Positions 1 through 63,745 of a stretch of 64,000 nt of DNA are shown piece after piece. The notes beneath the pieces are model-generated. The model worked only from the letters and a program-made list of their open reading frames with translations, made no database searches and was not told the DNA's origin. Origin of the DNA: an uncultured Alphaproteobacteria bacterium (GTDB taxonomy: Bacteria; Pseudomonadota; Alphaproteobacteria; Rs-D84); assembly GCA_944389535.1 (NCBI GenBank), contig CALXMS010000001.1:103202-167201 (forward strand). The letters are read 5' to 3'. Positions within the stretch are counted from its first letter, which is position 1. Each line of letters opens with the position of its first letter. Made by a program: the position numbers and the translations under genes.

Positions 1-223
1 CTGTTGTACCCGACGTAAAAACAATCTGGTTCGGCACAGCGTTTATAAATTTTGCTGTGCGCATGCGCGCAGCCGCAACCATATTATCTACGGCGCTTGC
101 ACGTGCACAAATTCCCCTTCCTGCATTAGCGTATGAGTGCCGCAGAAAATCCATTTCCGTTTTTATTACGGATTCGGGTTTTAAGGACGTAGCAGCAGCA
201 TCTAAGTATATGATATTATTCAT
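1..223 (-). CDS. Cysteine desulfurase (aminotransferase class V, IscS/NifS/SufS-like), N-terminal fragment running off the window edge
   Basis: The minus-strand translation from the ATG at ~223 reads MNNIIYLDAAATSLKPESVIKTEMDFLRHSYANAGRGICARASAVDNMVAAARMRTAKFINAVPNQIVFTSGTT. The YLD-AATS and FTSGTT motifs are typical of class V aminotransferases/cysteine desulfurases. The ORF is partial, so it is absent from the ORF track. Confidence 0.5.
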   Translation of the reverse strand, partial: MNNIIYLDAAATSLKPESVIKTEMDFLRHSYANAGRGICARASAVDNMVAAARMRTAKFINAVPNQIVFTSGTT

Positions 224-297
224 TTTATGATTTCTCTTGCATTTTATGGGGATTATAATACACTCCTGAGAAATATCAACAAGGAAGGAGTTGAAAA

Positions 298-618
298 ATG
301 GCTTTGGTACACGCAAATGACGCAAATTTTGAACCTCTAACGTCTTCTGGTATTTCGTTAGTAGATTTCTGGGCACCTTGGTGCGGTCCGTGCCGTATGT
401 TTGGTCCTATCTTTGAATCGGCGTCAGAAAAATTAACCGACGTTAATTTTATTAAATTTGAAATAGATGAATCAAATCGTCGTACACCAGCAAAATTTGG
501 AATTCGTAGCATTCCTAGCGTATTAGCGTTTCGTAACGGCGAATTAATTGAGGCAAGAACTGGTTTAATGGACGAAGAAACACTTATGGATTGGATACGT
601 GAAATAAAAGGATCCTAA
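298..618 (+). CDS. trxA: Thioredoxin
   Basis: 106 aa with the canonical WCGPC active site and a thioredoxin-fold length. A GGAGG-like RBS (aaggaagga) precedes the ATG. Confidence 0.9.
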   Translation: MALVHANDANFEPLTSSGISLVDFWAPWCGPCRMFGPIFESASEKLTDVNFIKFEIDESNRRTPAKFGIRSIPSVLAFRNGELIEARTGLMDEETLMDWIREIKGS

Positions 619-10201: not shown

Positions 10202-12214
10202 TTAATTTTTATTCTGCTTTGCATACAATGATATTGTGCATATACAAGAAAACAATAGAATAATTATCATCCACGTATCTCGACCAATACTTCTATATGG
10301 CGTTACATGGGCACCGAAAATTACACCATCCATATAACCTGATAAACCGACAGGAATTTCTGACATTACCGCACCATCGGCAGAAATAAATGCACTAATT
10401 CCTGAATAATTTGCTCTAATAATCGGTAAACCAGATTCAATAGCATAACGTCGAACCATGTCTAGATGCTGATAAGTTCCTGGCGTATTACCAAACCAAG
10501 TATCGTTTGTTATATTTATAACAGCATCGGGGTGTTCTCCTTTGGGAACCAAAGAGTCAGAAAAAATAATTTCATAACATATTGCCGGTGCAAATTTAAA
10601 AGAATGGTCCTTTATATTCATATTTATAATTTCTGGTCCGAAGCCCTTTTCTAATTGTCCAGGCGTCGGAATAATATCACCAAAAGGTCTATATTCACCA
10701 AAAGGAACTAAATGAGATTTACTGTATACTTTTTGAATTTCTCCGTTTGACGTTGATACTATCATTGAATTATACATATTATTATCAGAATAAGTCGTTG
10801 CTCCAATAATAACATTATTATTTAATACCTCCGCCAAAGGCATATCATCTCCTTTTAAAACAACAAAAGGATATGATGTTTCTGGAAAAACGATTAAATC
10901 GGGAGCCCCTGTCGAAGAAGCCAAATCTATTAAAACTCTTACATTTTCTGTGGCATTTTGTATTGCTTCTTCTCTAGAATGTGTCGCTTTTTGCACTGCG
11001 CTGCGCGCTGGTTGAACAACCCTTATGATGGGGCTAGTACTTGTGATCTGTTTAGATTTTTTGACATTAATATAACCATAAGTCGATCCAATAAAAGCTA
11101 AAACAAGAAATATTATAAACGTTACCCAGCCTATTTTGCTTTTACGTAAATTCACTAATTCAATGATTGACGCAATTAATCCCAAAACAACAAAAGAAGC
11201 ACCTAACGCGCCCCATAAAGACATAGAATTACTCAACAATTGTGACGGCATAAGAATGTTAGCAATTGGATTCCATGGAAATCCTGTTAACAGCCATTCT
11301 CTGAACCATAATATAAGCACCCATGTTGCAGCAAATAAAAACGCCCTACATGCTGGAAAAGTACGCACACGCATCACCACGACAAAGGGTATGGAAAAAA
11401 CAACCCCTCCTAATAATGCTATTCCTAATAATGCCGGTATAGTCCATATCGCGAATTGAGCAGTCAGTTCCGGAACAACATAAATAGAGTTTACTACCCA
11501 CCAAAACATAGCAAGCGCATATGCTGCGCTAAATGGCAAAATTCTTAAAAAAGCTTTTAGTGTGGTTATATTATGCGTTACGTTTATAGATAACTTATAA
11601 GCGGCAGCAACGGCTATCAAAGTTGCCCACCAAATATGAAACGGGGCAAAACCTAATGCTGCAATTCCCCCTAACAAGGCCATAATTATATACTGCCATA
11701 TAGAATTTTCTTTTATTTTGAAACGTTTTAACCATAAAAATATTTTGTTTCCGGGACAACACGATAAATCGCTGCATGCGTTAGATTCCGCTTTATAGGG
11801 ATTTTTTATACCAATGTTTTTTAAAATATTTATTTCTTTGTTTTCCATTATTTTTGCGTCTTTGTCCCTAATATGGTCATACCCTTGTAAATGCAATACA
11901 CCGTGAACAATCATATGCGCTGCATGATCTTCAAATGATATATTTTCATCCTTGCATTCACGTAAAACTGTATCGAAAGAAATATAAATATCTCCTAAAA
12001 GAATATCATCATCTAATTCAAACGATAACACGTTAGTTGGTTTATCTATATTGCGGTATGTTTTATTTAATTGGTGAATTTTTGCATCATTAGTTAATAC
12101 AATAGATACCTCAGCGTCTTTACCGACATGTAAAGCCGCTGCATTTGCTATTTTATTAAAATCAATCTTGTATTTACGCCAACGTTCATCGTCATAATTT
12201 ATATAAATTTTCAT
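10202..12214 (-). CDS. ybeY/lnt: Fusion ORF: N-terminal endoribonuclease YbeY domain joined to apolipoprotein N-acyltransferase Lnt
   Basis: The first ~140 aa carry the YbeY zinc-binding HGVLHLQGYDH motif. The remainder has the Lnt multi-TM N-terminus and a C-terminal CN-hydrolase domain (PETSYPF ... ICYEIIF). One uninterrupted 670-aa frame covers both. The two are usually separate genes in a phoH-ybeY-corC-lnt operon. Confidence 0.75.
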   Translation of the reverse strand: MKIYINYDDERWRKYKIDFNKIANAAALHVGKDAEVSIVLTNDAKIHQLNKTYRNIDKPTNVLSFELDDDILLGDIYISFDTVLRECKDENISFEDHAAHMIVHGVLHLQGYDHIRDKDAKIMENKEINILKNIGIKNPYKAESNACSDLSCCPGNKIFLWLKRFKIKENSIWQYIIMALLGGIAALGFAPFHIWWATLIAVAAAYKLSINVTHNITTLKAFLRILPFSAAYALAMFWWVVNSIYVVPELTAQFAIWTIPALLGIALLGGVVFSIPFVVVMRVRTFPACRAFLFAATWVLILWFREWLLTGFPWNPIANILMPSQLLSNSMSLWGALGASFVVLGLIASIIELVNLRKSKIGWVTFIIFLVLAFIGSTYGYINVKKSKQITSTSPIIRVVQPARSAVQKATHSREEAIQNATENVRVLIDLASSTGAPDLIVFPETSYPFVVLKGDDMPLAEVLNNNVIIGATTYSDNNMYNSMIVSTSNGEIQKVYSKSHLVPFGEYRPFGDIIPTPGQLEKGFGPEIINMNIKDHSFKFAPAICYEIIFSDSLVPKGEHPDAVINITNDTWFGNTPGTYQHLDMVRRYAIESGLPIIRANYSGISAFISADGAVMSEIPVGLSGYMDGVIFGAHVTPYRSIGRDTWMIIILLFSCICTISLYAKQNKN

Positions 12215-12231
12215 AATCCATTACCTATGTA

Positions 12232-14157
12232 TTAATCTAAATTTTTATCAGATTTTGACAAAAGTTTTTCTTTAATCATATTATCTTTGTCTTGTTTTTT
12301 TATATTCTTTGCGGCATTAAAAAATGCGGCTGTTTTATCGGAATAAATATTATTAATTCTGTCCACATCTTTATTTACAGTGACATTGCCATTTGCAACA
12401 GACAATTTATAATTAGCCAAAGCCTTTTTAAAATCTCCTAGCATTTCATATGCAAATCCGGCATTATATTGCGCCGCGGCATACTGACTTTTATCTCCTA
12501 TGCGATGCAAAATTTCTCTGGCCTGCGCAATGGCCTCTTCATATCTACCTAAATGGTTATACGTTGCAGCTAAATCATTATGTAATAACGCGTTATTTGG
12601 ATACTGCACCAACATTTTCTCAAATTGTGTTGCTGCCCCAAGATAATCTTTTTTAGTATATGCAGCTATAGCATTATTGTATTGTTCGTCATAACCAATA
12701 GTATACGTTTTAGCCATAACTCTTTCTTGCGATTTAACAACTTTATAAAAGTTATCATTATTTAGTTCACACTTACCATTTTGACACAAAGCTAAAACAT
12801 CAGATGGTAGAAAGTCTGCCACTTTTTTCCAATGTCGTAAGCTTTCACCTTTAGCGTTTACCGGATTAAGTATCCATTGTTTAAATTTTATAAAAGTTTC
12901 TTTATTTACTTTTCTATTAGTTATATCACCGATAAAAAACGCTTCCTTCTTTTTTCCCATAACACAAAAAAATTCGTACATACCATTTACTGGACAGCTT
13001 AGCAACATTCCAGGTGTTATATCACCAGTTAATAATCCAGCCTCTAACCAACGGCGCCAATACAAACCTCTGCCGCCAGATAAAAAACCACCTAATTTAT
13101 TTGCTACAACATCTTTATCAGCCCCTTTTAACCAAAATTTCCCGAAAGACGTAGTATCTTGTATAGGGTATCGATCAAATATTTTTTGAACCAACGTATC
13201 AGGTACACCATAACCATACTTATCATATAAATTACGCAATTGTTCAAATCTTTCTTTATTATTTTTGTCTTCAGGATTTTCTATCAATTTAGAGTATGAG
13301 TTATATAAAATAGACCCCATACCCAAAACCTCACTTGTTGAAGTAATATTAACGTTTGTTTGTGAAACTTCATAACAATATAAAATGAAATAAGTTTCAC
13401 TTTCTTCCAAATGCCAACGAGCTAATTCATATGCCTCTTCTGTTGTCATCGGTTTAGTTTTCATGGTAACGCGACTGCCGTCTTTTAACATTGTTGAACC
13501 AAAGCCAATTGTAGGTATATTCTTTGAATCAAGATATGGTTTATGTAGCCCTGTTTGTGGATCGACATGAACACCTTCTTTTGCAATTAAATCCGCAATA
13601 AGAAAAGGCGTTATTGGTTGCACTTTATTTAGAAATGCTTTATAAGTACCACGCGCTTGTTTTTCTGCGGCGCGTTTTGTTCGATATTCTTTATATTGTT
13701 TAACCGCGTCCGGGACATATTCTACACCTGCATAAATACTAAAAGACAACGCCGTTAAACCCAGCAACCATATAGCATGCGAGAAAGAATTCGGATTTGA
13801 CTTTATAAACGAAGGAACGAATTTAGTTTTACCGTCTTTATTTTTTTTCACCTTCATTTCTTGAATTTTATTTTCAATTTGCCGCATATATTTATTATCC
13901 ATTGTCAACCAACGCGCCAACGTAAGTAAAAACTGACTGCCTCCAGCTGCCAGCCATGCGGTTCCCTTTGCTAATCCCAAAAAACCTATTGCAGCATTAT
14001 CACGCAATTTTGGGTAACGTTCTTTAATTCCATCTTCATCTTTTTTACTGCGTTTATCACGAATATATTGTACAGGTTTCTTTTTTTCTATAAATTTACG
14101 TAAATTCGCTGCCACTTGTTCTGGTATGGCAACCTTTTCTCTAAATTTTTCTGACAT
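12232..14157 (-). CDS. Membrane-anchored protein with a GH24 (phage-type) lysozyme-like catalytic domain and C-terminal TPR repeats
   Basis: An N-terminal hydrophobic segment (AIGFLGLAKGTAWLAAGG / WLLGLTALSFSIYAGV) precedes the central LIADLIAKEGVHVDPQTGLHKPYLDSKNIPTIGFGSTM...MTTEEAYELARWHLEE. This fits the GH24 E...D-x5-T(IGxG) catalytic pattern and the downstream tEEAe.LL..dL helix. The C-terminus has three or more TPR-like repeats (YNNAIAAYTKKDYLGAATQFEKML... YNAGFAYEMLGDFKKALANYKLSV). Confidence 0.5.
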   Translation of the reverse strand: MSEKFREKVAIPEQVAANLRKFIEKKKPVQYIRDKRSKKDEDGIKERYPKLRDNAAIGFLGLAKGTAWLAAGGSQFLLTLARWLTMDNKYMRQIENKIQEMKVKKNKDGKTKFVPSFIKSNPNSFSHAIWLLGLTALSFSIYAGVEYVPDAVKQYKEYRTKRAAEKQARGTYKAFLNKVQPITPFLIADLIAKEGVHVDPQTGLHKPYLDSKNIPTIGFGSTMLKDGSRVTMKTKPMTTEEAYELARWHLEESETYFILYCYEVSQTNVNITSTSEVLGMGSILYNSYSKLIENPEDKNNKERFEQLRNLYDKYGYGVPDTLVQKIFDRYPIQDTTSFGKFWLKGADKDVVANKLGGFLSGGRGLYWRRWLEAGLLTGDITPGMLLSCPVNGMYEFFCVMGKKKEAFFIGDITNRKVNKETFIKFKQWILNPVNAKGESLRHWKKVADFLPSDVLALCQNGKCELNNDNFYKVVKSQERVMAKTYTIGYDEQYNNAIAAYTKKDYLGAATQFEKMLVQYPNNALLHNDLAATYNHLGRYEEAIAQAREILHRIGDKSQYAAAQYNAGFAYEMLGDFKKALANYKLSVANGNVTVNKDVDRINNIYSDKTAAFFNAAKNIKKQDKDNMIKEKLLSKSDKNLD

Positions 14158-22077: not shown

Positions 22078-23583
22078 TTATTCTGCAATCAACTTATTAT
22101 AAACTTTTTTATCCGTAAGTATTTTAGCTGACACGGCGGCCGACAAAGCATCTTCATCAGCACCGCTGGTTATAGTTGGACAGCCTTTACGAATTTCTTC
22201 GACGCTAAAATCATTGTTTTTATTAAAATCTTGCGCATTAAAATCATTATTGATTACATTTAAGAAAAACGCGTTTTGTTGATTCGTTGACCTTATATTA
22301 GACAAACATACTATCGGGAAAACACCACGTCCATCAATCATTCTACCAGAACCGGTTTTTATAGATTTATTTAATAGTTCTAAAGCCCCACCGTTTTCCA
22401 AATCGATACGCGTTGCTATTCTTGCGTTACCTGCAGTGGGTGTACCAACCAAAACACCTCGTTCATTTTCATAAAACGATGCGGCGACGGCTTCTGCTGT
22501 GCCACGCGTCATATCAGACATCAAAACAACGACTGGAACATCTGTAACAGCATTTCCACCTGGTATAACCTCAACTTCTTCTTTAGCAGTTTCAATAATT
22601 CTCATAACTGGTTTTGCCCCTATAAACAACCCCGCCAGTTTGGCTGCAGCACGCTCATCATCCCCCATAGCAGCCCTTAAATCTAAAACTATACCGGAAA
22701 CATCCGGATATTTTGCTAGTGCCTCATTTACAATTGCGACTGAATTATCTGATATCTTGTGGACGACAATTTCTAAAATTCCGCCCGTATCAGGATCACT
22801 TCTATGCACAATATCTGCATCTGCTAAAATAATTGTCGCCCTACGTAAAACTACATCTTTTTCACCGCTTGGCGCCAATACTTTGATTTTTGAAGTACCA
22901 GAATTAAAACCAGACATTACCGCCGACAAATCCGCATCTGATAATTCTGAAACATTTCGTCCGTTTATAGAAACTATCAAGTTACCTTCACGGATACCTG
23001 ACGTATCAGCCGGAGAATCTTTATATATACCCGTAACTCTATAATTGCCACGCTCATCACGTACGCCTTCTAAACCAACACTGGTAAGGATTCTTCCGTC
23101 TTCTGTAATTTCTGCAGCTCTTGAATAAATATACCTTCCGTTTTCATCAATTCCGCGCATTAAACTATCTACAACCATCTGATACATTTCGCTAGTAGAG
23201 GCGTTATGTAAAACAGGATCATTCGCACGTAATTTTAAAATCAATGCCGTCGTTATTTCACCAAAACCTTTCCAATCAGACGCATTAGGACGTGGGTAAT
23301 TAGCAATGATAGAATCCTGCCAGACAAGAACTATGCGCTCATCTGTTGCTGCTATATGTGCATTTTTATTTAAATTTTCTAAACTCTCTATGGCAACATT
23401 TATGTTTTTTCCGCCCCATTTTATACCGTCTAACTTTTCATATATATCTGCAAAAGTGGAAGAGACCTCAAAAACATTTAAACCATCTTGTATAGGTTCA
23501 TCTTCAAAAAACAAACTTTCAGATCGACAAGGTAACGAAACCAAGGTTAAAAGTGCGAATAAAAATAATTTAGTTATTTTCAT
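22078..23583 (-). CDS. ctpA: Carboxy-terminal processing peptidase (S41 family) with PDZ domain
   Basis: Signal peptide. PDZ domain GIYKDSPADTSGIREGNLIVSINGRNV. The S41 catalytic region is VVLMSDMTRGTAEAVAASF...GVFPIV. Confidence 0.8.
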   Translation of the reverse strand: MKITKLFLFALLTLVSLPCRSESLFFEDEPIQDGLNVFEVSSTFADIYEKLDGIKWGGKNINVAIESLENLNKNAHIAATDERIVLVWQDSIIANYPRPNASDWKGFGEITTALILKLRANDPVLHNASTSEMYQMVVDSLMRGIDENGRYIYSRAAEITEDGRILTSVGLEGVRDERGNYRVTGIYKDSPADTSGIREGNLIVSINGRNVSELSDADLSAVMSGFNSGTSKIKVLAPSGEKDVVLRRATIILADADIVHRSDPDTGGILEIVVHKISDNSVAIVNEALAKYPDVSGIVLDLRAAMGDDERAAAKLAGLFIGAKPVMRIIETAKEEVEVIPGGNAVTDVPVVVLMSDMTRGTAEAVAASFYENERGVLVGTPTAGNARIATRIDLENGGALELLNKSIKTGSGRMIDGRGVFPIVCLSNIRSTNQQNAFFLNVINNDFNAQDFNKNNDFSVEEIRKGCPTITSGADEDALSAAVSAKILTDKKVYNKLIAE

Positions 23584-58950: not shown

Positions 58951-58973
58951 AAACCGACCTATTAGGTCGGTTT
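58951..58973. terminator. Bidirectional terminator shared by argS(+) and the tRNA-Gly/Tyr transcript(-)
   Basis: AAACCGACCT-att-AGGTCGGTTT is a perfect 10-bp stem. On the minus strand it is followed by TTTTTGTTTTAT. Confidence 0.55.
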
Positions 58974-58979
58974 GTATTC

Positions 58980-59066
58980 TGGTGGGAGTGGGTGGATTCG
59001 AACCACCTCAGGCTTAAGCCAACAGATTTACAGTCTGCCCCGGCTCTCCAACTCCGGCGCACGCCC
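58980..59066 (-). tRNA. tRNA-Tyr (anticodon GUA), type II with a long variable arm
   Basis: Reverse complement is GGGCGTGCGCCGGAGTTGGAGAGCCGGGGCAGACTGTAAATCTGTTGGCTTAAGCCTGAGGTGGTTCGAATCCACCCACTCCCACCA (87 nt). Has the anticodon loop CUGUAAA, a GGTGG/CCACC T-stem with TTCGAAT loop, a long variable hairpin and encoded CCA. One apparent C4.U69 acceptor mismatch and C8 may be reading errors of +/-1 nt. Confidence 0.6.
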
Positions 59067-59073
59067 AATCCCT

Positions 59074-59148
59074 TGGTGCGGGCAGCGGGAATCGAACCCG
59101 CATTTCAAGCTTGGAAGGCTTGCATACTAGCCTTTGTACTATGCCCGC
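59074..59148 (-). tRNA. tRNA-Gly (anticodon UCC)
   Basis: Reverse complement is GCGGGCATAGTACAAAGGCTAGTATGCAAGCCTTCCAAGCTTGAAATGCGGGTTCGATTCCCGCTGCCCGCACCA. Clean cloverleaf with U8, A9, anticodon loop CUUCCAA, a GCGGG/CCCGC T-stem with TTCGATT loop, a 7-bp acceptor stem and encoded CCA. Confidence 0.75.
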
Positions 59149-59225: not shown

Positions 59226-60092
59226 TTACCTTATGCCATGAATTATATTCTCCATTTCTAACAAGAATTCTTCATCATAACCACGCGCTTTTAAGCGCTG
59301 CACCATTAAATGCGCCGCCTCTGCCACGCCTAAACTTTTACAGATTTCAACAACCGTTACTATTTCGTCACGTGTCATCTTATCTGTCGGCATCAACGCA
59401 ACCGCAACACCTAATTCTCTTATAGCTGCCCGCATATATGCCGGTTTGTTATCGCAACATCCATACTCATATAAAACCGCATATGTTCTAGCGTTATTTA
59501 AAAATTCATAATAATTATATGCGTTCTGATTTATATTCTTTAATACACGATTTTCAATCGTCTGACATATCTTTTCATCCGAATATAAATATTCAGTTGA
59601 TACCATGGCATCGTCTTCATAACCATAACTCGCCTTTAAAGCATCTGCTATCGCTTGCTTACGTGCCGCCATATCTGTAAAGAATGTTGAATTTTCTGGA
59701 CATCCGTATTTTGCTAACGTTTTATAAATGTACGCTGAACTTTCTTGCCAACGATAATCATCGTCTTCATCGGATACAATATCTTTCAATAATAATTTTT
59801 CAACAACTGCGCATGCAGGTGGTATTTCCGAATTTTCTATAACTTGTACAGTTTCAACATTAGTCTGTACTGACGAATCTTCTTCTATAACAGTGGTTGT
59901 TTCAATAACTTGCTCTGTATAATCTGATGGCATACTTTTAGTAAAAACATCACGCCAATTCACAACGCCACCATCATGTAAAACCCATGCAGTAGCACCA
60001 GCTATAATCAATATTACAATAAACAACCACAACCATACACGGCCGCGATGTATACGATTTTTTTCTTCTTCTTTGCGTTTAGTTTGTTTCAT
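59226..60092 (-). CDS. Hypothetical type-II membrane-anchored protein with a periplasmic helical domain carrying repeated Y..L..YGC.(E/D)N...Y..A..REL..A.AL motifs; paralog of the 61034..61759 product
   Basis: Has a basic N-terminus (MKQTKRKEEEKNRIHRGR) and one TM (VWLWLFIVILIIAGATAWVL). The domain contains YKTLAKYGCPENSTFFTDMAARKQAIADAL and YAVLYEYGCCDNKPAYMRAAIRELGVAVAL. It aligns with the 61034..61759 protein over ~100 aa (C..IE..L....NY...L.NA.TY....E.GC..N...Y.A..REL..A.AL.P). Confidence 0.5.
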   Translation of the reverse strand: MKQTKRKEEEKNRIHRGRVWLWLFIVILIIAGATAWVLHDGGVVNWRDVFTKSMPSDYTEQVIETTTVIEEDSSVQTNVETVQVIENSEIPPACAVVEKLLLKDIVSDEDDDYRWQESSAYIYKTLAKYGCPENSTFFTDMAARKQAIADALKASYGYEDDAMVSTEYLYSDEKICQTIENRVLKNINQNAYNYYEFLNNARTYAVLYEYGCCDNKPAYMRAAIRELGVAVALMPTDKMTRDEIVTVVEICKSLGVAEAAHLMVQRLKARGYDEEFLLEMENIIHGIR

Positions 60093-60112
60093 TTCTCTCC
60101 CCTATATTACAT

Positions 60113-60376
60113 TTATTTAATTGGAGGATAACAATCACCATTGCCTGCGGGGCAACAATTAAAACCTAAATCCCCCATATCGGTATAAACTTCACCTGTA
60201 CAGCAACCGTTATCATCAGGTACGCTTCCGTCTGGACATACTTGTTCATAATTTGTGCTATACGCACTATTTCCAGCGTATACAGCCATTAAATACCCTA
60301 TACCTATGCCACATATAAAACATAATGAAGATATAGATATTATACACCAATTACAATTTTTTAATTTAAAATTCAT
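60113..60376 (-). CDS. Small signal-anchored protein with a C-terminal six-cysteine module (C..GCC.GE...DMG.L.F.CCP...G.CYPPI)
   Basis: The track ORF uses GTG at 60409. The ATG at ~60376 overlaps the upstream gene's stop (ATGA). Has a hydrophobic anchor (CNWCIISISSLCFICGIGIGYLMAVYAG) and then VCPDGSVPDDNGCCTGEVYTDMGDLGFNCCPAGNGDCYPPIK. This module is shared with the C-terminus of the 60373..61041 product. Confidence 0.45.
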   Translation of the reverse strand: MNFKLKNCNWCIISISSLCFICGIGIGYLMAVYAGNSAYSTNYEQVCPDGSVPDDNGCCTGEVYTDMGDLGFNCCPAGNGDCYPPIK

Positions 60377-61041
60377 ATTGCATCCCCGCTGGTTATAGGT
60401 GGATAACACTCGCCCCCATCATCTGGGCAACAAGCAAACACTAAATTTCCCATATCTTTAAACGTTTCGCCTTCGCAACAACCAAATTGATTTGGTTTGC
60501 TGCCGTCTGTACAAAGTCCAGCCGCAACATTTGCTGCAGCAGTTACAGCATCTATTTCAACAATTTTAGACTTATCAATATTATTACAATCGTTATTATA
60601 CTGACTTTGTAAAGGTTGCAATTCTGTTGAACTAACCCCTGCGGCAGTTAACGTATCCATATCTGTTTTTAAACCTTCGCATAAATTTTTACGTTCTGTC
60701 AGATAATCATTTAAAACGCTTTGCGATGTTATAATTACAGTCTCTACAACTTGTACAGTATTTTCATTTGTCGCCGCTGTCGCCGTAGCTGTCGCAACGC
60801 GGCTTGACGCAGAAGTACGGCGCCCAGATGCAGATTTAGAACAATTACTACGATATTGCGACTGCAAGTTACTTAGTTCGGAACTTTGTGCCTCATCAAG
60901 AGTTTCCATCGCAGATAATTGATTTATTCGTGCCTGCATTTCTGTACAATCCATACGTTCAGAAACATCTGCAGATATTGCCGGCACAGTAAAGATACTA
61001 ATTAATAAAAAAACTAAAGTTTTTTTCATTTTTTTACTCAT
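60373..61041 (-). CDS. Secreted protein with a cleavable signal peptide, coiled-coil/low-complexity middle and the same C-terminal six-cysteine module
   Basis: Signal peptide MSKKMKKTLVFLLISIFTVPAISA. Has an Ala/Thr-rich tract (RVATATATAATNENT). The C-terminus LCTDGSKPNQFGCCEGETFKDMGNLVFACCPDDGGECYPPI aligns residue-for-residue with the small protein at 60113..60376, and all 6 Cys are conserved. Confidence 0.5.
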   Translation of the reverse strand: MSKKMKKTLVFLLISIFTVPAISADVSERMDCTEMQARINQLSAMETLDEAQSSELSNLQSQYRSNCSKSASGRRTSASSRVATATATAATNENTVQVVETVIITSQSVLNDYLTERKNLCEGLKTDMDTLTAAGVSSTELQPLQSQYNNDCNNIDKSKIVEIDAVTAAANVAAGLCTDGSKPNQFGCCEGETFKDMGNLVFACCPDDGGECYPPITSGDAI

Positions 61042-61759
61042 TTATTATTTGTTCCATTTTTAAAATAAAATCTGTCGCAGGATCTATCAGCTGCTTCATT
61101 TTATCTAAAAATTCTTCAGCTTCGCGCTGCATATCTAATTTTTTAAATGTATCTATTACAAGTGTCGCGTCTCCTTGGTCCATGTTTCTCTCTGGTTGTA
61201 ACGCAGTGGCAATTTCTAATTCCCGCAACGCAAGAGCTTTATACATATCAGCATTTTCAGAACAACCATTTTCTGCAATGGAACTATATGTGTTAGCGTT
61301 TGTTAAATGATCTATATAGTTAACACTATCTTCTGGCCATAACCTTTGTTTTAATAAAGATTCGATTCTGGAACATGTGGACATTATTTCTGACTTTTCT
61401 TCAGCCACAGAAACAGGTTCTTTTTCTATAACAACCAAACTACCCGCGCAGCCCGATAAATATCTTTCTTGTAATTCATTTAATACGTCTACATTATCTG
61501 CATTTGCACCCTGTGTAGTTATATTAACAATTTCGTTTGCCATAGCGTCGCATTGTTCCGCACTAAGTGCCTGTCTTGTCGTAACCGGTTCACGATAAGA
61601 CAAACCTAAAATTAAACCGCATGCAAACAAACCTGCCAAAGCAACGGCACTCCAAATTTTATGTCCTGTACTACAGCAATTTATTGAACATTCTGTTGCT
61701 TGTTTAACGTTTACTTTTTTTGCAACTTTTTTTGTAGTGTTTTTCATAATTCCCTCCAC
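61034..61759 (-). CDS. Hypothetical type-II membrane-anchored protein, paralog of the 59226..60092 product (YGC.EN/REL helical-repeat domain)
   Basis: Has a Lys-rich N-terminus, a CC pair (ECSINCCSTGHK) and one TM (IWSAVALAGLFACGLILGL). The periplasmic domain carries YIDHLTNANTYSSIAENGCSENADMYKALALRELEIATAL. The stop overlaps the next gene's start by 8 nt. Confidence 0.5.
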   Translation of the reverse strand: MEGIMKNTTKKVAKKVNVKQATECSINCCSTGHKIWSAVALAGLFACGLILGLSYREPVTTRQALSAEQCDAMANEIVNITTQGANADNVDVLNELQERYLSGCAGSLVVIEKEPVSVAEEKSEIMSTCSRIESLLKQRLWPEDSVNYIDHLTNANTYSSIAENGCSENADMYKALALRELEIATALQPERNMDQGDATLVIDTFKKLDMQREAEEFLDKMKQLIDPATDFILKMEQIINE

Positions 61760-61768
61760 TTATAAATA

Positions 61769-62491
61769 TTATTCCACAATTCCGTCATTAATTGTAATTT
61801 TTCTGTCGGCGCGCGCCGCTAAATTCATATCATGCGTTACAAACATCATTGCCATTTTATTTTTACGCACAAGATTAAGCAATAAATCAAATACGGCCGC
61901 GGCATGATTTGGATCCAAACTTCCCGTTGGTTCGTCAGCAAGTAAAATCTCGGGCTCATTTGCCAAAGCCCTTGCGACAGCGGTGCGCTGTTGTTCCCCG
62001 CCAGACATTTCACCAGGCATATGAGAAGCACGATGAGCAACATTCGCAGCACGCAATAATTTCATCGCTCGATTACTAGCGGCTCGCTCATCAACGCCAT
62101 TCGCCAACATAGGTAATACAACATTTTCCAGTGCTGTAAAATCTGACAACAAATTATGTCGCTGATATACGAAACCTATTTTTTGTCTGCGCATCATGGT
62201 TCGCATTTCATCGTCCATTTTCTGAACAGGAGTACCGTTTAATAAAATGCTTCCCGCTGTTGGTTTATCAAGCAACCCAACGCATTGTAAAAGTGTTGAT
62301 TTCCCACTGCCTGACGGCCCTACAAGAGCAATTATTTCACCACGATGCAAATCAAATCCGCCGCCGCGCAATATATGCAATGGCTGCCCCCCTTCCATAA
62401 ATGTTTTTTTTATATCACGAACCGACAGTACTACGTCGTTACGAGAAACTTTTGATAAAGAATTTAATATATTCGCCATTTCTTTAATCAC
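61769..62491 (-). CDS. lolD: Lipoprotein-releasing system ATP-binding protein LolD
   Basis: ABC ATPase with Walker A GPSGSGKST, signature LSGGEQQRTAVARAL and Walker B ILLADEPT. Sits directly downstream of the lolC/E permease gene. Confidence 0.85.
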   Translation of the reverse strand: MIKEMANILNSLSKVSRNDVVLSVRDIKKTFMEGGQPLHILRGGGFDLHRGEIIALVGPSGSGKSTLLQCVGLLDKPTAGSILLNGTPVQKMDDEMRTMMRRQKIGFVYQRHNLLSDFTALENVVLPMLANGVDERAASNRAMKLLRAANVAHRASHMPGEMSGGEQQRTAVARALANEPEILLADEPTGSLDPNHAAAVFDLLLNLVRKNKMAMMFVTHDMNLAARADRKITINDGIVE

Positions 62492-63745
62492 CTATTCATT
62501 ACGTAATACTTCTACCGGATCAGTACTTGCGGCTTTCCACGCAGGATATAACGTTGCAAGAAAAGCTAATAATATAGCAAGAAGCGCAATTCCTACCACG
62601 GTACTTGGAACAAGTTTAGATGGTAATTCTGATAAATAATATAATTCTGCTGGAAATAAATCTCTTCCAGTTGCCCACTGAAAGAATTGTCTGATTGGTT
62701 CTATATATATTGCGATAAGTACCCCGAATACAGTTCCAAAAAAAGCCCCTAAGATACCAATACTTGTACCAGACAAAATGAAAATTTTCATCATTGACCG
62801 ACGCGATACCCCGAAAGTACGCAAGACCGCTATATCTTTTGATTTATCTTTAACCAACATTACCAAACTTGAGACTATATTAAAAGCCGCAACGATAACA
62901 ATCAGCATCAAAATTAAAAACATTACATTTGATTCAACTTGTAAAGCTCCGACGAATCCTCTATTCAGATCGCGCCAATCGCGGACTACAAAACCTTCTG
63001 GTAATAAGGTTGTTAATGCATCACGAACTTCTTCTGTATCTTCTGGATCTTTTAAAAATAAATCTATATGAGTTACAGAACTTGGTATGTTTAAATACTT
63101 CTGCGCGCTTTCCAATGGCATAAAAATATAACCAGAATCATATTCATACATTCCCATAAAGAAAGAAGACATAACTGGATAAGACATAATTCGCGGCATA
63201 GAACCAAACGGGGTTGGCGTCGCATTATTAGCAGAAGCTAAAGAAATTTTATCTCCCATTGTAACGCCCAGCGATCTTGCCAACGAAGCACCGACAACTA
63301 ATTCATCTTCTTTTATTTCATCCAAACGTTTACCATAAATTTTAGTTCCTGTGACAGTTTTAGCGACCAAATCTTCCATACGAATTCCGCGAATCATTGC
63401 ACCAGTATTATTACCATTAGCCATAGCCATAACCTGCCCCTCTGCAATGGGAACTATGCCTATTGCATTTTCTGCAACGACTTTGTTTTGTTTCATTTTA
63501 TCAATTAAGAAATCATAGTCCTGAATTGCCCCATCTTGATAATACACGACAACGTGACCGTTCATCCCAACGATTCTAGATAATAAAGTATCATGAAACC
63601 CACCCATCACAGACATTACAACGATCAAAGTTGCAACGCCTAAAGTTATGCCTATCAAAGAAACCCATGATATGACAGAACCAAAACCGCGTCTTTTCGC
63701 CGCCAGATATCTAAATGCAATTTTTCTTTCTAATTTTGAAAACAT
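62492..63745 (-). CDS. lolC: Lipoprotein-releasing system permease LolC/LolE (FtsX-like)
   Basis: 417 aa. Has an N-terminal TM, a large periplasmic MacB-like domain and a C-terminal FtsX 3-TM domain. The stop abuts the lolD start (ATG immediately after). Confidence 0.85.
   Translation of the reverse strand: MFSKLERKIAFRYLAAKRRGFGSVISWVSLIGITLGVATLIVVMSVMGGFHDTLLSRIVGMNGHVVVYYQDGAIQDYDFLIDKMKQNKVVAENAIGIVPIAEGQVMAMANGNNTGAMIRGIRMEDLVAKTVTGTKIYGKRLDEIKEDELVVGASLARSLGVTMGDKISLASANNATPTPFGSMPRIMSYPVMSSFFMGMYEYDSGYIFMPLESAQKYLNIPSSVTHIDLFLKDPEDTEEVRDALTTLLPEGFVVRDWRDLNRGFVGALQVESNVMFLILMLIVIVAAFNIVSSLVMLVKDKSKDIAVLRTFGVSRRSMMKIFILSGTSIGILGAFFGTVFGVLIAIYIEPIRQFFQWATGRDLFPAELYYLSELPSKLVPSTVVGIALLAILLAFLATLYPAWKAASTDPVEVLRNE

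Follow-up and report, generated by a model that had tools for sequence, protein, structure and literature searches.

A conserved six-cysteine module and TPR-like proteins encoded with lolCD in gut Alphaproteobacteria of the Rs-D84 group

The window, by which is meant the whole stretch of 64,000 nucleotides analysed here (uncultured alphaproteobacterium of Rs-D84, contig CALXMS010000001.1), carries four minus-strand genes that lie between lolCD and a tRNA-Gly/tRNA-Tyr pair and encode the cysteine-rich envelope proteins here termed A1, A2, B1 and B2. Both B proteins end in a common module of about 42 residues with six cysteines, and by the comparisons made this module is an undescribed domain, the module and the A/B2/B1 set being rated new as a domain and as a system. 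The newness is that of a domain and not of a demonstrated mechanism, and a function for the module and the set is something we infer. A first-pass annotation had already described four packed minus-strand genes in two paralogous pairs, and the coordinates, the BLASTP comparisons and the overlaps agree with it.

Over the module B1 and B2 are identical at 24 of 41 positions (59%; E=1e-16), and the six cysteines follow a C/CC/CC/C pattern with the spacing C-x9/10-CC-x14-CC-x6-C, placing all six, two vicinal CC pairs among them, in about 36 residues. In the B2 alignment and in a 54-sequence alignment of the module alike, the columns of GCC, CC and the last C do not vary and that of the first Cys varies hardly or not at all; neither alignment has a conserved His beside the module cysteines. 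Two subtypes can be told apart. The B2-type module is nearly unchanged over 35 B2 orthologues that are themselves 34-98% identical overall, and the B1-type module is a second, separately conserved subtype with the type consensus C.DG..PD.NGCC.GE.YTDMGDLGFNCCP..GGDCFPPI(K/R). In the AlphaFold2 (AF2) model of B2 the module is predicted to be a beta-hairpin with strands at residues 192-196 and 202-206, modelled at a predicted local distance difference test (pLDDT) value of about 83-86. When a 42-position profile of the module was run against 1.84 billion (1.84e9) protein cluster representatives it matched 248 of them at E<=1e-3 and 119 at E<=1e-10, and so the module, first noticed as a likeness between two small proteins, is real and conserved.

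That the module is not a recognised domain, as was first supposed, is borne out by the sequence comparisons made. Against Pfam and NCBIfam it gives chance-level matches to unrelated families only and none to the cysteine-rich granulin, knottin/ICK, hydrophobin, metallothionein or SCIFF families, and the four complete proteins likewise give only sub-threshold chance matches there; a profile of the 54 module sequences run against all PDB sequences has as its best match a chance one (E=2.3), and a PDB fold search with the module returned no clear match. For all the B2 homologues listed the precomputed Pfam assignment is '-', and the public names of module proteins are only 'hypothetical protein' or 'Secreted protein'. 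In the literature searched on Enterousia and Rs-D84 these proteins are not described. Metagenome-assembled genomes (MAGs) often contain uncharacterised families that are confined to one lineage.

The locus consists of six consecutive minus-strand open reading frames (ORFs) that run from 63745 to 59226 in the order lolC/E, lolD, A2, B2, B1 and A1, followed by the two tRNA genes. Its features, all on the minus strand of the window, are these:

62492..63745, minus: lolC/E, LolC/E permease of the ABC transporter for lipoprotein release; heads the conserved unit
61769..62491, minus: lolD, ATPase
61034..61747, minus: A2, bitopic type II inner-membrane protein; ORF open to a GTG at 61759
61448..61561, minus: periplasmic helical hairpin of A2, with Cys69 and Cys104 at its ends (counted in the 241-aa ORF)
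61037..61387, minus: TPR-like domain of A2, with invariant Cys129/Cys166 and the motif YGC.EN...REL..A.AL.P
60373..61041, minus: B2, 222 aa, Sec-exported
60394..60519, minus: B2-type six-Cys module, GLC.DGSKPN.FGCC.GE.FKDMGNLVFACCPDDGGECYPPI
60113..60376, minus: B1, 87 aa, mini bitopic protein; ORF extendable to a GTG at 60409
60116..60241, minus: B1-type six-Cys module, C.DG..PD.NGCC.GE.YTDMGDLGFNCCP..GGDC(F/Y)PPI(K/R)
59226..60092, minus: A1, 288 aa, clade-specific extra A paralogue
59074-59148, minus: tRNA-Gly(tcc), downstream of the four-gene cluster
58980-59066, minus: tRNA-Tyr(gta), downstream of tRNA-Gly
58951-58973, minus: hairpin like an intrinsic terminator, a 10-bp stem with a T-rich tail directly 3' of tRNA-Tyr

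In the window A2 and B2 overlap by 8 nt, and B2 and B1 by the tetranucleotide ATGA. The real start of A2 is probably the ATG at 61747 because the A2 orthologues begin MKK; this codon sits 7 nt after a GGAGG and gives a protein of 237 aa. Between lolC and the tRNAs no terminator as clean as the hairpin at 58951-58973 was found, and that hairpin is likely to be the end of the transcription unit.

The same arrangement is met in related genomes. A set of 84 related loci, 80 from GTDB species genomes and four from metagenome contigs, was retrieved by B2 similarity (genomes without B2 thus lie outside the sample), and their ORFs were called and classified with hidden Markov models (HMMs) built from the window proteins. 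The order lolC-lolD-A-B2 is kept in all 84, although some of their B2 proteins are only about 30% identical, and the median gaps are short (13 nt from lolC to lolD, 27 nt from lolD to A). The 8-nt overlap of A with B2 recurs in 30 of 83 loci and the 4-nt ATGA overlap of B2 with B1 in 24 of 47, and so the translational coupling proposed for the window genes is conserved in many loci; it points to a functional link of A and B proteins in the same direction as the gene fusions described below. Of the co-occurrence that the first-pass annotation had put forward for checking, A with B2 is seen in all 84 of these loci, and the B1 gene is absent in some.

In about 45 of the 57 loci checked with ARAGORN the cluster is followed, on its own strand and often within 30-1000 nt, by a tRNA-Gly/tRNA-Tyr pair, and since the pair is so widely kept the tRNA adjacency is ancestral; the synteny at the tRNA-lolCD junction is in this sense conserved among the related loci. 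Distances to the genes for ArgRS and LppC vary among loci. The variable part is that between the last B gene and tRNA-Gly, which holds the extra A1 in the window's clade and, in some other loci, about 5 kb including ftsK and putative beta-barrel proteins. The cluster has a GC content of 0.368 and the window one of 0.370, att-like repeats are absent at the window cluster, no integrase-like ORF is present among the window ORFs, and a tblastn search with B2 against plasmids and phages gave no match. The proposal that the tRNA genes mark an acquisition hotspot is therefore set aside: the cluster is no island and is best read as an old, vertically inherited unit typical of Candidatus Enterousia/Rs-D84, not as something carried by a mobile element.

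At least 97 GTDB species-level genomes hold B2 homologues. All are gut MAGs that go by Candidatus Enterousia or 'uncultured Alphaproteobacteria', with one exception, a 4.6-kb contig (L063, CAZJGX010000068.1) that carries a full lolC-lolD-A-B2 and is filed under a Muribaculaceae MAG, most probably through mistaken binning. The order Rs-D84, in which Enterousia is placed, has members with genomes below 1 Mb that ferment and are without respiratory chains; dependence on partner cells is suspected for them but an intracellular life is not established (PMC12306168), and the obligate intracellular lineage first imagined for the window is therefore unsupported.

The A proteins are anchored in the inner membrane and have a TPR-like domain on its periplasmic side. 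BLASTP shows A1 and A2 to be paralogues (E=2e-14), two segments of A1 aligning with the A2 domain, and the motif Y..L..YGC.(E/D)N...Y..A..REL..A.AL is found twice in A1 and once in A2. By hydropathy and charge A1, A2 and B1 each have a K/R-rich N-terminus followed by a single transmembrane (TM) segment, in agreement with the type II topology assigned to A1 and A2 and the signal anchor assigned to B1 in the first-pass annotation. A1 is built of this TM anchor, a T/V/E-rich linker and two tandem TPR-like cores (HMM domains at residues 78-166 and 164-288), and such a further A copy downstream is confined to the closer relatives, L005-L030 plus L059. An extra and shorter A-type gene (143-204 aa) lies between lolD and the main A gene in seven loci (L007, L025, L026, L028, L059, L060 and L072), and therefore the A family has expanded more than once at this locus.

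The description of the A2 family comes from an alignment of 39 orthologues. Its tail is basic and cytoplasmic, with a C-x3-CC-x3-H motif in the closer relatives. In the window this juxtamembrane motif reads C-x3-CC-S-x2-H-K (61645-61690, minus strand; residues ~24-37 of the 241-aa ORF) and stands just before the TM helix; it is kept in the closer orthologues and gone from the distant ones, and by its sequence might be a metal-binding or acylation site. The two-Cys helical hairpin that follows the membrane segment is absent from the most distant family members. The C-terminal domain carries T-C and G-C as invariant pairs besides the motif YGC.EN...Y..A.REL.I..AL.P, and it ends in a highly conserved VIDT(F/Y)KKLDMQ.EA..FL.K...L..PA..FIL.ME.IINE. 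In the AF2 model residues ~125-225 have pLDDT above 90 and the hairpin helices run from 67 to 83 and from 90 to 103.

The model of A2 is TPR-like, its alpha-alpha fold superposing on solved TPR domains and lying near those that bind C-terminal peptides, namely HOP, PP5, CHIP, Sgt2 and PEX5. Yet in hmmscan against Pfam (E<=10) A1 and A2 match no TPR or Sel1 family, nor any such family in NCBIfam, and the A2 profile finds nothing meaningful among the PDB sequences. There is a single clear repeat signature in A2, the A..AL.P after the YGC.EN turn, and the remaining helices are without a recognisable repeat consensus. Because neither TPR or Sel1 profiles nor PDB sequences match, the A family is TPR-like in its predicted fold and not a TPR member by sequence. 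The nearest kind known is that of TPR domains with three repeats and a capping helix (TPR1/TPR2B of HOP, PP5, Sgt1/Sgt2, PilF/PilW, the TPR domain of BepA), from which the A domain differs in its invariant C129/C166 staple and its N-terminal TM tether to the inner membrane, and differs from the TPR/Sel1 consensus in a fixed G-C-x-E-N turn.

B2 has a signal peptide, two Cys-stapled helical hairpins, a low-complexity linker and the C-terminal six-Cys module. At its N-terminus a short hydrophobic stretch precedes a conserved A-x-A|D site, as fits the cleavable signal peptide first assigned to it. The hairpins are bounded by C32/C67 and C121/C152 and are homologous to one another (hhalign probability 95%, E=6e-8); the A2 hairpin is similar to them more weakly (E 1e-4 to 6e-4, hhalign) with its cysteines aligned, and the A-family HMM matches B2 at E=2e-4, cross-matches that back the link between the A2 and B2 hairpins. 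The AF2 model of B2 has a mean pLDDT of 69.6, rising to the values already given in blocks over the module. A 30-nt direct repeat (80% identity) joins 59836-59865 in the A1 linker (..VETVQVIEN..) with 60743-60772 in the B2 linker (..NTVQVVETV..), and its ETV segment is also kept in B2 orthologues, which may reflect a shared short strand motif or chance. The B1 orthologues (45 distinct sequences) have a short K-rich tail, a TM segment of ~23 aa, a short linker and the module; on its sequence features the hydrophobic segment reads as a membrane anchor and not a leader. Each periplasmic domain of the set holds an even number of conserved cysteines, and these stand at helix or strand ends.

Beyond the B1- and B2-like proteins the profile search found the module on VirB10/TrbI and on bitopic proteins, most of them with B1-type modules. 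Among the 150 matches listed the module stands 0-24 residues from the C-terminus, mostly 1-7, in 144 of 144 newly retrieved proteins, and extra copies, where found, are internal; a separate protein search with the module alignment gave 29 short proteins and added little. The VirB10/TrbI carriers (PF03743; NF038091) are encoded in a virB8-virB9-virB10 operon and have a C-terminal extension of ~200 aa that ends in the module. The bitopic carriers, of 635-852 aa, combine a conserved N-domain in the cytoplasm with a coiled coil, cross the membrane once at residue ~440-555 and reach the module through a long Pro/Glu-rich periplasmic linker. The N-terminal part of the 719-aa carrier listed below matches nothing in Pfam, NCBIfam or PDB, and a search of PDB sequences with the large carrier P0222 gave nothing meaningful. 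Contigs with the VirB10 and bitopic carrier genes have a GC content of ~0.35, like the Enterousia loci. Three genes serve as examples:

L086 3118-5616 (ENA ERZ1029110 contig): VirB10/TrbI of 832 aa with a B1-type module, in a virB8-virB9(CagX)-virB10 operon adjoining yidC
L085 8001-10160 (Logan SRR21898927 contig): bitopic carrier of 719 aa, TM near residue 481, 38 nt downstream of gcrA
L087 234-875: P0249, 213 aa, TM anchor with a TPR domain of A type (E=6e-23) and a B1-like module

Fusions tie these parts to one another. Within +/-7 kb there are two modules in 60 of the 84 loci and one in 24. In 12 loci both modules are in one B2 protein and the B1 gene is absent, and all 12 of the internal modules score better with the B1-type than with the B2-type HMM, the margin being clear in most (for example 73 against 50 bits) and narrow in three. 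In P0249, which is encoded directly after another A gene and is known from one 1.2-kb contig, an A-type domain is joined to a B1-like module. As Rosetta-stone cases these gene fusions argue for a joint role of B1-type modules, B2 and the A domain.

The reading tentatively favoured, held at a little less than an even chance, is that of a lineage-specific periplasmic docking set made together with LolCD, in which the A protein would be a TPR anchor, B2 a secreted adaptor and B1 an anchored plug. The four genes are the distal part of a unit lolC-lolD-A-B2-(B1)-(A1)-tRNAGly-tRNATyr, and the module would be a disulfide-knotted docking or 'plug' domain that membrane-anchored proteins display at their periplasmic tip. 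A B2-type and a B1-type module may pair, or the peptide-binding groove of the A TPR domain may capture them, or both. In this way a hub anchored in the inner membrane would organise trans-envelope assemblies, for example the core of the type IV secretion system (T4SS) and long tether proteins. Made in fixed proportion with LolCD, the hub would probably act beside it in outer-membrane or lipoprotein biogenesis, a link suggested by synthesis in step with LolCD.

Several points weigh against a docking set. The pairing of modules and their capture by the TPR domain are read from gene fusions and synteny only; the single module in 24 of the 84 loci means that B1 is there dispensable or encoded elsewhere, and the A/B fusion comes from the one short contig. 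The sample was picked by B2 similarity, and presence across Rs-D84 covers the B2-bearing genomes only. Because Rs-D84 is without respiratory chains (PMC12306168) the quinone-dependent DsbB route to disulfides may be missing. The linkage to lolCD might be operon inertia in a compact genome, and the AF2 models are moderate overall (predicted template modelling scores, pTM, of 0.31 and 0.47). A wider claim, that the secreted B2 and the membrane-anchored A use the module, as a new two-subtype docking class, to wire LolCD, the T4SS (through VirB10) and a coiled-coil organiser of ~700-850 aa into one lineage-specific trans-envelope network, appears unlikely on present evidence; such a network might stand in for any canonical envelope tethers or Lol chaperones that are missing from these bacteria, which have reduced genomes and probably depend on partner cells.

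Among other explanations an unlikely one is that the module is an anchor domain for a non-protein envelope ligand (peptidoglycan, lipopolysaccharide or an outer-membrane lipid), comparable to the SPOR, OmpA-like or LysM domains that end bitopic proteins, and that A, B2 and B1 are cell-wall or outer-membrane tethering factors. The carriers listed, which end in the module and are anchored in the inner membrane with long Pro/Glu-rich periplasmic linkers, have the layout of FtsN/DamX (SPOR), TolA/TonB and PodJ as generally known, and VirB10 must reach the outer membrane. However, two conserved subtypes, fused where B1 is absent, fit a heterotypic protein pair better, and the module shows no similarity to a known peptidoglycan-binding family in Pfam, NCBIfam or PDB sequences.

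It is rather improbable that A is a TPR adaptor for a C-terminal protease, as in NlpI-Prc and LbcA-CtpA, with the module as a recognition or regulation tag, or that the module is a C-terminal sorting signal for dedicated export. The module is strictly C-terminal, usually with 1-7 residues following PPI, the A fold is near the C-terminal-peptide-binding TPRs named above, and the window has an S41 protease gene (22078-23583); but this gene is 36 kb off and a common housekeeping one, the module is compact, highly conserved and folded in the model and is not a degenerate tail, some B2 proteins carry internal copies, and the carriers are structural inner-membrane proteins and not exported cargo. 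Equally improbable seems a role of the Cys modules in metal binding or thiol-redox chemistry (metal buffering, electron transfer) in place of structural disulfides. The cysteine density and the two vicinal CC pairs would suit it, as would an anaerobic lineage without respiratory chains in which DsbB-dependent oxidation may be absent (PMC12306168), whereas no conserved His accompanies the cysteines, the helical hairpins and the TPR domain each hold exactly one Cys pair suited to a staple, and a metal buffer at the tip of VirB10 is without obvious rationale.

Very improbable indeed is an island acquired at a tRNA hotspot that encodes secreted host-interaction or toxin-like peptides, with A proteins as possible immunity or chaperone partners: the cluster adjoins two tRNA genes, B1 is small and Cys-rich and the neighbouring LolD gives generic ABC-ATPase matches that include bacteriocin exporters, but position and order are the same throughout the diverged loci with the tRNAs part of the arrangement, the composition is that of the background and no integrase, att repeat, plasmid or phage copy was found, LolC scores above the LolCE equivalog cutoff, and the module caps VirB10 and large bitopic inner-membrane proteins anchored from the cytoplasm, the B1 segment likewise being an anchor, which also makes the toxin-like secreted peptide family of the first-pass annotation unlikely. 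Two more specific candidates were tried and rejected. A bacteriocin with a dedicated exporter was given up on the anchor in 45 B1 orthologues, the LolCE-equivalog permease and the syntenic lineage-wide distribution; a C-terminal sorting domain of the type IX secretion system (T9SS CTD), PEP-CTERM, GlyGly-CTERM or LPXTG kind was given up on the lack of a TM segment after the module, of any NCBIfam sorting-signal match, and on the inner-membrane-anchored structural nature of the carriers.

The module carriers are comparable to several known systems. Like TonB/TolA, the SPOR proteins FtsN/DamX/DedD and PodJ with its peptidoglycan-binding domain, they have their N-terminus in the cytoplasm, as a larger part or just a short tail, cross the membrane by a single TM segment and continue in a long linker rich in Pro/Glu or Thr/Val to a small folded domain at the very C-terminus. 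B1 looks like a minimal version of this bitopic, envelope-spanning layout, much as DedD does. In contrast to the terminal domains of those proteins the module, without sequence or fold similarity to them, is of ~42 aa with six Cys and comes in two co-evolving subtypes, and the likeness to TonB, TolA and SPOR proteins may concern the mode of working and not family membership. With granulin/paragranulin, hydrophobins and the conotoxin frameworks that contain CC, the Cys patterns of which are general knowledge, the module shares a high Cys density, CC pairs and a predicted structure based on a beta-hairpin. Its spacing does not fit theirs, however, and it is bacterial, periplasmic and always C-terminal, with no Pfam match although that library has a granulin model.

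The likeness to the LolCDE operon is one of position, the cluster lying directly downstream of lolC/E and a lolD-like ATPase gene with short conserved junctions. The lolC/E product scores 420 bits with NCBIfam TIGR02212 (cutoff 362), and that of lolD has as its best NCBIfam match TIGR02211 (LolD) at 252 bits, under the equivalog cutoff of 308. No described component of the Lol system (LolA, LolB) resembles A or B; LolA and LolB profiles do not match the four proteins, and the folds predicted for these by AF2 are helical or beta-hairpin and not an open beta-barrel. From synteny only do we infer that A and B may be linked in function to Lol. No gene for LolA, Dsb or T4SS proteins was found in 20 other window ORFs scanned, a small sample in 64 kb of a ~0.9-Mb genome.

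Other genes were noted in passing. At 10202-12214 (minus) one 670-aa ORF encodes a YbeY endoribonuclease (PF02130) together with Lnt (LNT_N and CN_hydrolase), and is either a gene fusion or two genes without an intervening stop codon; since an Lnt domain is encoded, the organism makes triacylated lipoproteins. The S41 gene (22078-23583, minus) encodes a C-terminal-processing protease of 501 aa (Peptidase_S41), and a 641-aa ORF at 12232-14157 (minus) has no Pfam match at E<=1e-8 and is unrelated to the large module carriers. In L001-L004 the gene at 1-397 (minus) encodes a 592-aa product with precomputed FtsA/PilM and ribulose-phosphate 3-epimerase matches, which looks fused and adjoins ftsQ.

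Candidatus Enterousia and Rs-D84 are widespread uncultured gut Alphaproteobacteria, whose way of making an envelope, and of attaching to partner cells or feeding on them, is not understood (PMC12306168). A set that is kept in one operon with lolCD across the group must matter to the envelope, and the links to VirB10 and to lolCD were unexpected. At the least the module merits a new domain family entry, which corrects the annotation 'hypothetical protein'. If the module docks, it would be a new way to wire trans-envelope machines and would help to find where the T4SS and the envelope tethers lie in these organisms, and as a compact, disulfide-rich binding pair of two subtypes it may be of use in protein engineering.

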